DNA of 17,907 nucleotides, taken from the IMG/VR virus record IMGVR_UViG_2675903650_000016; one strand, 5' to 3'. The stretch comes from a virus (taxonomy: Duplodnaviria; Heunggongvirae; Uroviricota; Caudoviricetes). Below, piece by piece: positions 712 to 2,278 of the stretch. Under the pieces are notes generated by a model. It was not told the DNA's origin and did no database searches. It saw only the letters and a list, made by a program, of their open reading frames with translations. The first letter of the stretch is position 1; every line of letters starts with the position of its first letter. The translations under genes and the position numbers were made by a program.

Positions 712-735
712 AAAAAAGGGGCGCAGACGCGCCCC
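712..735 (-). terminator. intrinsic terminator downstream of porin gene, upstream of L
   Basis: Minus strand reads GGGGCGC-GTCT-GCGCCCC (7 bp GC-rich stem, 4 nt loop) followed directly by TTTTTT. On the plus strand the same hairpin is not followed by a T-run, so it is unidirectional. Confidence 0.6.
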
Positions 736-908
736 GAACAATAAAAGTCCAATTTAAAATAAAACCAATAAAGGTAATAACAGAAAGTTAAATCAGCACA
801 TGCCAGATGGCAATTGCTGATCGCAGTGACCAATGAAAACTGTGTTTTCATTGATACAGGCCGCCTGTAAGGGCAGACGGCCCGTATTTATTAACTTATC
901 AGCAATAA

Positions 909-2072
909 TCAGAACTGATAAGTCATACCCACAGCAACGATATTATCTGTCGCAACACCGGCTTTCCGGGTAAATTCACTTTCATCAATCAGGTTAATTT
1001 TATAATCAACATAGGTGGACATATTCTTGTTAAAGTAATAAGTCGCTCCGACATCAATATATTTAACCAGATCCTGATCGCCATGGTTCACACCACCAAC
1101 CATAACATCCTGTCCGCGGGACTGAAGGTAGGCCAGGGACGGGCGCAGACCAAAATCAAACTGATACTGCAGTACCGCTTCAAAGTTTTGCGCTTTATCT
1201 GCAACTCCTTTATCACCAAAGGTCGTCAGATTCTGAGTTTCGGAATATGTTGTAGCCAGGTAAAGGTTGTCAGCATCGTATTTTAGTCCGACTCCCCACA
1301 TCTCAGCGTGTTTACCTTTTGCAACACTACCGGAATCAACAACGATCTGCTTTTCAGTCACTTTACCGGTTAAAGGATCAGTTTGTTCAATCGTCAGAGT
1401 ACCATTCAGACCTTTTTCCTGATTATTGGTTCGGTCCGCATTAATATATGCGGCAACGATACCAAAACCTTCATATTCATAACTGGCTGAGAAACCGTGA
1501 CCATCACCATTAGCTTTCCGGAGATCACCCCGATCATTTTTACCCTGGTACTGTGCCGCAAAATTCAGGCCATCGACAAGCCCAAAGAAATCTGTATTAC
1601 GATAGGTTAATACCCCGGAAGTACGGGCTGTCATGAAGTTATCGGTCTGGGTCCAGCCATCACCGCCAAACTCTGGTAATACGTCAGTATAAGAACCAAC
1701 ATCGTACGCAATACCATAGTTACGACCATAATCAATGGTGCCAAACTCACCAAACTTCAGACCTGCAAATGCAAGACGGGTTTTATTACCCGCAGCACCC
1801 TCTGATTCAGCTTTATTACCAGAGAACTGATATTCCCACTGACCAAAACCAGTCAACTGGTCATTAATCTGAGTTTCACCTTTAAAGCCCAGACGTGCGT
1901 ATGTCTTATCTCCATCATCCCCCTTATCACTGGAGAAATAATGGAGTGCAGTTGCACGCCCATACACATCAAGTTTATTGCCATCTTTATTGTATACTTC
2001 TGCAGCCTGCGCCCCCGCTGCAAAAATTACAGCTGCTGCCACAGCTGAAAGTGCCACTGTCATTTTTTTCAT
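909..2072 (-). CDS. OmpC/OmpF-family general porin (phage-borne moron; Lc/NmpC-like)
   Basis: 387 aa protein with an N-terminal signal peptide ([23 protein letters not shown]) and mature start [15 protein letters not shown]. It carries enterobacterial porin hallmarks as I recall Omp[83 protein letters not shown] and a terminal Phe. ATG at 2072 is preceded by TAAGGA. Flanks are AT-rich, unlike the neighbouring phage genes. Confidence 0.9.
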
Positions 2073-2135
2073 GATTTAATCCTTATTTAAACTGAACTAT
2101 TCATGCATAGAGATGTCATGAACAAAACTCAAAAT

Positions 2136-2185
2136 ATTGTAAATTAAATTACGGGTTCAATTTTTATTTTGTTTCAAAATGTAAA
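2136..2185 (-). promoter_or_regulatory. candidate porin promoter with an OmpR-box-like sequence
   Basis: Minus strand contains TTTACATTTTGAAACAAAAT (plus 2166..2185), which matches the first 15 nt of the ompC C1 OmpR site as I remember it (TTTACATTTTGAAACATCTA). A TACAAT -10-like hexamer sits 24 nt downstream (plus 2136..2141), about 64 nt upstream of the porin ATG. Exact site boundaries and transcription start are inferred. Confidence 0.45.
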
Positions 2186-2278
2186 AAAACAACTTTGATA
2201 GCACTTTATGTCAAGACAAAAAAAAAATAACAAGCAAGCAAATTAATAAACGATGCTTTTAGGTTTTTTCTCAAAAAC

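Follow-up and report, generated by a model that had tools for sequence, protein, structure and literature searches.

General porins carried by phages have been described for phage PA-2 (Lc) and for the cryptic prophage DLP12 (NmpC), where the gene is located between Q and the lysis genes, on the strand opposite to the late operon. Lysogens of PA-2 are known to lose OmpC, a protein that phages and colicins use as a major receptor and that is also an entry route for antibiotics and an immune target. Between the stop codon of the phage porin gene and its intrinsic terminator lies ipeX, which is made within the porin transcript (PMC12197685). The present work concerns a stretch of DNA of 17,907 nt from a virus of the Caudoviricetes (IMG/VR record IMGVR_UViG_2675903650_000016), called here the window, a word that always refers to the whole stretch and not to the element under study. 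In this window a porin gene, together with a promoter-like region and a structured 3' untranslated region (3'UTR), is placed between the tail genes M and L. We read this arrangement, with a probability of roughly 0.6, as a self-contained porin-replacement cassette, i.e. a moron, of lambda-like Escherichia coli prophages. The cassette and its neighbours comprise the following features.

2279..2620, minus strand: tail gene M, minor tail protein (Pfam Phage_min_tail, E 5e-28; empty-site alignment)
2202..2217, minus strand: conserved upstream block GTCTTGACATAAAGTG, a perfect TTGACA without a -10 partner, shared by 15 upstream variants and by further lineages
2166..2185, minus strand: box resembling an OmpR-binding site, TTTACATTTTGAAACAAAAT, with a 16-nt run in common with ompC C1; top matrix match, conserved
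2131..2160, minus strand: putative sigma-70 promoter, with a -35-like TTGAAC (2160..2155) and a -10-like AATATTTT (2138..2131) overlapping TACAAT (2141..2136); predicted start at about 2124-2129
2073..2126, minus strand: 5' untranslated region (5'UTR), with the blocks GTTCATGACA (2123..2114) and CATGAATAGTTCA (2105..2093) and the Shine-Dalgarno sequence AAGGA (2084..2080)
909..2072, minus strand: porin gene, 387 amino acids; signal peptide and 16-strand general porin with a short loop L4 and a long hypervariable loop L5 (about residues 216-250)
712..908, minus strand: structured 3'UTR of 197 nt, with hairpins H1 (887..854) and H2 (853..831), linker GUCACUGC (830..823) and hairpin H3 (822..791)
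765..792, minus strand: single-stranded anti-ompC core UUUAACUUUCUGUUAUUACCUUUAUUGG, complementary to the ompC initiation region -31..-3 and more weakly to ompF
712..735, minus strand: intrinsic terminator, GGGGCGC-GUCU-GCGCCCC and then U6
1..699, minus strand: tail gene L (Pfam Phage_tail_L, E 1e-91; junction alignment)

Lc and NmpC are the nearest named relatives of this phage-borne general porin (about 73% identity), and their signal peptide and pieces of their leader are similar to those of the cassette. The likeness extends to the 3' end, since ipeX and the cassette 3'UTR have the same layout, namely a long hairpin, two shorter hairpins, an AU-rich single strand and a GGGGCG..CGCCCC terminator, with a spacer that in each case is complementary to the ompC start region; the segment 908..712 also occupies the position of ipeX, between porin stop codon and terminator. 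The analogy with PA-2 Lc and DLP12 NmpC, drawn in an earlier note that was made on this DNA from the letters alone, was therefore apt, and it reaches further than proposed there, to an ipeX-like anti-ompC element. On the other hand, the cassette is located between M and L, with the orientation of the operon, its protein differs from Lc and NmpC by 27% and has an L5 that is about 25-30 residues longer, its OmpR-like box scores 16.7 bits as against 5.6, and its 3'UTR has no significant nucleotide homology to ipeX beyond the terminator. With the chromosomal ompC-micF pair the cassette shares an OmpR-type site in promoter-proximal phasing and the linkage of a porin gene to an antisense RNA (in the cassette, a predicted one) directed against the ribosome-binding site of a competing porin, and the core resembles the 5' end of MicF (UUAACUUU..UAUUACC). 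It differs from that pair in being located in a prophage, in encoding a non-orthologous porin (64%), in having the antisense element in the porin's own 3'UTR and not in a divergent gene, and in having one OmpR-like site instead of three. By analogy, the cassette would work like Lc/NmpC with ipeX and like ompC-micF and yet would belong to neither, because of its locus and orientation, the divergence of its protein, its non-homologous 3'UTR and its stronger OmpR-like site. As for the lambdoid morons (lom and bor of lambda, and those of HK97 and HK022 treated by Juhala and Hendrix), they are likewise extra genes of some relatives, of deviant composition, located in the late region with a promoter-like region and a terminator and encoding an envelope protein, whereas the cassette additionally splits a coupled tail pair and carries an RNA module predicted to be aimed at a host gene. 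Salmonella OmpD belongs to the same porin sub-lineage (about 72%), but it is encoded by a chromosomal core gene. The predicted mode of action of the cassette RNA is that of the small RNAs derived from 3'UTRs, such as MicL, CpxQ or DapZ, and of MicF and MicC, in which a single-stranded seed located 5' of a U-tailed terminator hairpin pairs with the start of an mRNA for an outer-membrane protein.

The cassette is an insertion between M and L, because a megablast search of positions 600..2700 against 50,697 phage records rendered 152 records that match both flanks only, with M and L directly adjoining within 521 bp and no porin. At these empty sites the stop codon of M overlaps the start codon of L (TGATG). 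Relative to them the insert spans about 2286..700 (ca. 1.6 kb), and it changes the final two codons of M, which ends in …EQVIR and stop instead of …EQVVN and stop. The GC content of the insert is 25-48%, against 53-63% in the remainder of the window. The cassette is thus present in some genomes and absent at the same junction in close relatives, it is unlike its neighbours in base composition, and it has a clear terminator, together with a promoter that is deduced from conserved weak hexamers and an activator-type site and for which a strict scan made no call; it fits the moron definition of Juhala and Hendrix, with expression in the lysogen as the part that we infer. The moron architecture and the AT-rich surroundings seen in the earlier note are borne out by these data, and the comparison with standard tail clusters that had been proposed there came out in favour of an insertion.

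Among 5,426 complete E. coli genomes, the tail junction was found in 1,969 and the order M-porin-L in 92, which corresponds to about 2% of the E. coli sequenced, with many Shiga-toxin producers among the carriers. The Prokaryotic Genome Annotation Pipeline (PGAP) names the gene 'porin OmpC' in these genomes, the RefSeq annotation being generic. A search with the conserved leader pattern rendered 27 IMG/VR contigs, and four further divergent lineages were reached through a protein search, the proteins being then traced to contigs. Wherever the flanks are present the porin lies between M and L, and none of the 37 loci examined has a disrupted open reading frame (ORF). The clade appears to be limited to E. 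coli prophages, plus one assembly labelled Citrobacter farmeri. No porin more than 69% identical was found in the representative genomes of 185,579 species, and the phage collection contains neither a porin at the M-L site nor any encoded protein above that same identity. A first pattern scan for a chromosomal donor found nothing, a profile of the 3'UTR matched M-L loci only and nothing beside 80 chromosomal porin loci of other species, and our literature search found no paper on a porin between M and L.

The porin itself was described in the earlier note as full-length, with a signal peptide, and as a member of the OmpC family. The 387-codon ORF (2072..909) matches Pfam Porin_1 (PF00267) with an E value of 1.3e-140 over profile positions 1-337 of 337, and its translation shows a Sec-type signal peptide, the L3 constriction motif PEFGGD and a C-terminal …TYQF, so that both the full-length profile match and the sequence marks of a general porin (signal peptide, PEFGG and C-terminal aromatic residue) are present. 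The C-terminal aromatic residue is the signal for beta-barrel assembly. The nearest solved structures are those of OmpC, OmpK36 and PhoE (E about 1e-125). The protein is about 64% identical to OmpC and 62% identical to OmpF of strain K-12, and about 73% identical to the porins of the NmpC/Lc type, to Salmonella OmpD and to Citrobacter relatives; NmpC in turn is closer to OmpD (80%) than to the M-L porin clade. Of the NCBIfam models, only that of the OmpC subfamily is passed (496, with a cut-off of 484), whereas the OmpF and PhoE equivalogs are failed. 'OmpC-family' can therefore stand as a generic label but not in the sense of an OmpC orthologue, which was ruled out by the 64% identity, by the location in a prophage tail operon and by micF not being found.

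Alleles within the clade are 80-100% identical. The ratio of nonsynonymous to synonymous divergence (dN/dS) is 0.06-0.13 outside L5, with dS near 1 between lineages, and 0.15-0.6 in L5, where indels of 0-30 residues distinguish the alleles. Aligned to the solved structures of OmpC, the protein shows a break at residues 220-250, owing to an insertion of about 30 residues in L5, and L4 is shorter. Since dS comes close to 1 between lineages while dN/dS is about 0.1, these comparisons indicate long-term purifying selection on a working protein. The allele of the window is a recombinant, identical to the type of prophage EC2 between M and about 1155 and, beyond that point as far as L, to the type of prophage ST130 (breakpoint at 1140-1160), and the same mosaic coding sequence is present in two IMG/VR contigs (L028 and L029). 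A 7-nt match to the seed of RybB, a small RNA whose sequence was verified from K-12, is found at codons 5-7 (CAGTGGC, 2059..2053, minus strand; CAGUGGC in the mRNA). The same match is present in nmpC, a reported target of RybB.

Upstream of the gene, the sequence close to an OmpR site of ompC that had been pointed out earlier turned out to be an exact run, the box TTTACATTTTGAAACAAAAT having 16 contiguous bases identical to site C1 of K-12 ompC, as checked in the K-12 sequence. Matrices for OmpR were built from the K-12 sites F1-F3 and C1-C3, whose presence ahead of ompF and ompC, phased at 20 bp, was confirmed. With every matrix, including those from which C1 was omitted or which contained ompF sites only, the box is the best site of the window (16.7-19.3 bits; next site, 9.7-12.5 bits); when C1 is omitted it scores 16.7 bits, against 9.8 for the runner-up, and its score is within the range of the genuine F and C sites. 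The core of the box, TTTACAT(T/C)TTGxxAC, is kept across lineages, and shuffling of the window gives an expectation of 0.00 occurrences for this pattern. Across the 15 upstream variants and four lineages the box core is accompanied by TTGAA(C/T) exactly 5 nt 3' of the box, by AATATTTT 14-16 nt beyond, by the two leader blocks and by the Shine-Dalgarno sequence, and both hexamer regions are invariant across lineages. The gap of 5 nt between box and -35 region is the same as that between C3 and TTGGAT in ompC and between F3 and TAGCGA in ompF. The box would be located at about -59..-40 of a weak promoter of the activator type, with a predicted leader of about 50-55 nt, and this single site would fall at the distance (about -40 to -100) that characterizes the OmpR regulon. 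A scan for strict consensus promoters found no site upstream of the porin. Judged from these features, OmpR dependence of the putative promoter is somewhat better than an even bet.

Downstream of the gene, the earlier note had seen the strong hairpin and T-run just before L, and the terminator is indeed there, with a 7-bp all-GC stem and a 4-nt loop (735..718) followed by T6 (717..712), 13 nt 5' of the L start codon. It had missed, however, the rest of the structured 3'UTR of 197 nt. The minimum free energy of this region is -82.8 kcal/mol (z -8.3 versus shuffles). The three hairpins and the terminator were retained across 9 distinct sequences and, when the set was extended, across 13, in all of which the terminator stem is invariant; 99% of cells are paired, as against 38-45% when the partners are slid, and changes compensated on both sides affect 8 pairs in the 9 sequences and 11 pairs in the 13. 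Identity of the 3'UTR between lineages is 76-86%, versus 50-65% at the 4-fold degenerate sites of the adjacent gene. By these comparisons, the 3'UTR is a conserved structured RNA. Rfam rendered nothing in the cassette or the window, neither micF nor any known small RNA, with a library that does not contain the IpeX family, and the strict scan found no internal promoter-like site near the 3' end of the porin gene. An ORF of 59 amino acids inside the 3'UTR (851..672) was rejected, as it is not conserved.

Two further observations concern this RNA. The linker GUCACUGC (823-830, minus strand) is invariant in the nine variants of A1 and altered in the divergent lineages L120 and L124; it is one base off the RybB seed GCCACUGC and could pair with GCAGUGGC, which is found in the ompC and ompF leaders. 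Moreover, the distal spacer (736-764, minus strand) could pair over 13 bp with the 5'UTR of the cassette itself (2090-2105, minus strand; AGUUCAGUUUAAA), giving a helix in all lineages, with energies of -19 to -24 kcal/mol (z about -3) and one U-A/A-U exchange between lineages, although the energies across lineages are not cleanly matched.

The single-stranded core is complementary to the initiation region of K-12 ompC in a 15-bp block, -17..-3, that includes the Shine-Dalgarno sequence, and in a second block of 8-9 bp, -30..-22, with a duplex energy of -24.9 kcal/mol. ompC is the best target of the core among 91 annotated start regions (z -5.7), ompF is a weaker one, and the cassette's own start region is no target (z about 0 to +1). 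For comparison, the MicF-ompF control gives -27 kcal/mol. None of 1,500 60-mers taken from loci without the cassette equals the core-ompC duplex. Among 3,500 random genomic 60-mers, three do as well as the window allele and six as well as the EC2 allele, with minima of -44.1 and -41.2 kcal/mol; these are probably self-antisense segments, since the set included both strands of cassette loci and the minima fit perfect self-antisense. The duplex with ompC is retained, at -21 to -25 kcal/mol, in all seven lineages tested, some registers covering -14..+13, and the most divergent core, that of L124, has the look of a reverse-complement copy of ompC -15..+14 that has decayed. In 5,359 of the 5,426 E. 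coli genomes the ompC leader target has an identity of 99% or more. A conserved and accessible seed complementary to the ribosome-binding region of its target, as in MicF and MicC, is therefore predicted for the cassette.

The ipeX region (L007, about 3690-3725, plus strand; L010, about 2385-2420, minus strand) itself includes a near-perfect reverse complement of the ribosome-binding region of K-12 ompC. In the ipeX spacer, AACCUUCUGUUAUAU agrees with the reverse complement AACCCUCUGUUAUAU at 14 of 15 positions, to which CCUUUAUUU adds 9 of 9, with an energy of -26.7 kcal/mol, and ompC is also for ipeX the best of the 91 start regions (z -4.3 to -4.8). Homology of the cassette 3'UTR to ipeX is not claimed, since nhmmer matched the terminator alone, with an E value of 0.09. 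It is conceivable, at odds that we would put just short of even, that the phage porins of the M-L family and of the NmpC/Lc type are two-part 'porin swap' modules, whose 3'UTRs would be trans-acting antisense RNAs that arose as diverged reverse-complement copies of the ompC initiation region. If this were true, IpeX would act by ordinary antisense occlusion of the ompC ribosome-binding site, contrary to two decades of reviews, and the M-L family would have, in addition, a promoter of the OmpR type, by which the swap would be set off by the same signal as ompC itself. The cassette provides several independent natural replicates of the ipeX idea, and the conserved complementarity to ompC makes the mechanism of IpeX directly testable with compensatory mutations. 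A porin moron alone would be of modest interest; more is added by the anti-ompC 3'UTR, conserved as it is, and by what it implies for the mechanism of IpeX.

The replacement cassette would operate as follows. In the lysogen, a host-type promoter downstream of the OmpR-type site would give a monocistronic mRNA ending at the terminator before L, which would keep the tail genes L, K, I and J silent. The mRNA would be translated into a functional general porin of the NmpC/Lc/OmpD lineage, with surface loops unlike those of OmpC (the short L4 and the long hypervariable L5). The single-stranded segment of the 3'UTR, either within the mRNA or after processing, and in the manner reported for ipeX, would pair with the ribosome-binding region of host ompC and less well with that of ompF, so that translation of ompC would be shut down and host OmpC exchanged for the phage porin, mirroring the loss of OmpC in PA-2 lysogens. 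Permeability would be retained, while the surface presented to OmpC-dependent phages, colicins and antibodies would be altered, and through the OmpR-type promoter the swap would respond to the activating signal of ompC. During lytic growth, RNA polymerase modified by Q would pass the terminator, and L and the downstream tail genes would still be made. Read-through of terminators through Q antitermination is normal in lambdoid late operons; the earlier proposal that L and the genes downstream need read-through or antitermination holds in this sense, but it does not amount to a special requirement. If the whole scheme is true, a mobile exchange of OmpC for a variable phage porin alters phage susceptibility, permeability and antigenicity.

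Several points weigh against this interpretation. The promoter hexamers are weak (8/12), there is a single strong OmpR-like site where ompC and ompF have three each, and the closest relatives, NmpC and Lc, have historically been seen in ompB (ompR/envZ) mutants, so that the lineage need not depend on OmpR. Isolated phages among the 50,697 records lack the cassette, which was seen only in prophages and viral contigs, so that lytic competence of the carrier phages is presumed. For every member of the family it is from sequence that we infer expression in lysogens, and with it OmpR dependence, repression of OmpC and an exclusion phenotype. Long-sequence duplex folding without intramolecular structure was uninformative, and cofolding of the whole 3'UTR predicted binding of similar size to ompC, to ompF and to the cassette's own leader; specificity for ompC thus rests on the analysis of the short core, as whole-UTR cofolding is not selective. 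Beyond the terminator match, nhmmer found no significant homology between the 3'UTR and ipeX. Finally, IpeX is stated in reviews to act without base-pairing to ompC or ompF (PMC3617542, PMC10690425).

The statement of the reviews and the unselective cofolding would fit a moron that simply adds a porin. Its 3'UTR would then merely stabilize or terminate the mRNA, as stable hairpins at the 3' end of mRNAs commonly do, and the complementarity to ompC would be a non-regulatory relic. We regard this as unlikely, given that the complementarity of the core is strong in seven lineages near synonymous saturation and in differing registers, where a relic would decay, and that the unrelated-looking ipeX has the same complementarity. 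It can also be the case that the gene is read mainly from the Q-antiterminated late transcript, the porin and the silencing of ompC late in infection then altering the envelope or the debris and so sparing the progeny from being lost on lysed cells. The genes of the window, from the lysis genes to L, all lie on the porin strand, NmpC and Lc being by contrast antisense, but a dedicated promoter region and a strong terminator, both conserved, would be needless for late expression, and porin turnover is slow relative to the lytic cycle, which makes a lytic role more improbable still. That the porin belongs to the standard layout of the tail module, or is a decaying passenger, has practically no chance of being right: nothing was found in its favour, it is already refuted by the 152 phage records and by the majority of those 1,969 E. 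coli genomes that have the module, in which the porin is missing, and every ORF is intact with dN/dS of about 0.1.

The alternative that we take most seriously concerns the promoter alone, which might not depend on OmpR, the box being a piece of an ancestral porin promoter or the site of another regulator, and control being constitutive or exerted by catabolites or temperature, as reported for Lc and NmpC. The presence of only one site, the weaker homologous element (5.6 bits) in the upstream region of nmpC/lc and the expression of those porins in ompB mutants all agree with this view. Nevertheless, the box scores like genuine F and C sites, also with matrices free of C1, and it has exactly the promoter-proximal phasing of C3 and F3, conserved across deep lineages, so that independence from OmpR appears rather less probable than dependence. 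The replacement cassette remains the preferred reading of the locus as a whole.

With respect to the genomic context, the large ORFs of the window all lie on the minus strand and make up a lambdoid late operon with Rz-type lysis gene, terminase, head genes, tail tube, tape measure, M and L. The start of L, placed earlier at 698, was corrected to 699. The overlap of the M stop and L start codons is lost through the insertion, L being now downstream of the terminator with a weak Shine-Dalgarno-like GGCGGA, and an in-frame ATG is found four codons 5' of the L start (711..709). L is, as judged from this arrangement, translationally uncoupled from M and probably depends on the GGCGGA-like sequence. 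A translationally coupled pair of tail genes can therefore tolerate the insertion of a promoter-gene-terminator unit.

The lineages L120, L124 and L125 have the same M-L junction as the window and different tape-measure families (TMP_2/TMP_4 versus HK97_TLTM/TMP_3). The same junction in differing tape-measure modules suggests that the cassette was passed on by way of recombination in the M and L genes on either side, or else that one hotspot was used repeatedly. The IMG genome 643348545 has three separate viral contigs (L021, L033 and L037), each with M-porin-L, so that one strain can hold several copies of the cassette. Some carrier prophages are decayed: EC2 has a frameshifted capsid gene, the tape-measure gene of L009 has an internal stop and L008 is only a remnant. 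The C-terminus of J in the carriers resembles that of J of long-tailed Shiga toxin (Stx) phages, e.g. VT1-Sakai. Two other ORFs of the window deserve mention. One of 113 amino acids with a TonB C-terminal domain (E 1e-14), at 16573-16914 on the minus strand, is located in a stretch of lower GC content (45%) that separates the lysis genes from the terminase genes. This ORF may be another moron, and the ST130 prophage has the same gene, annotated 'TonB family protein'. The portal ORF (8847-11108, minus strand) encodes 753 amino acids, versus 861 in the otherwise collinear EC2 prophage (L001, 24259-26844), a difference of 108 residues.

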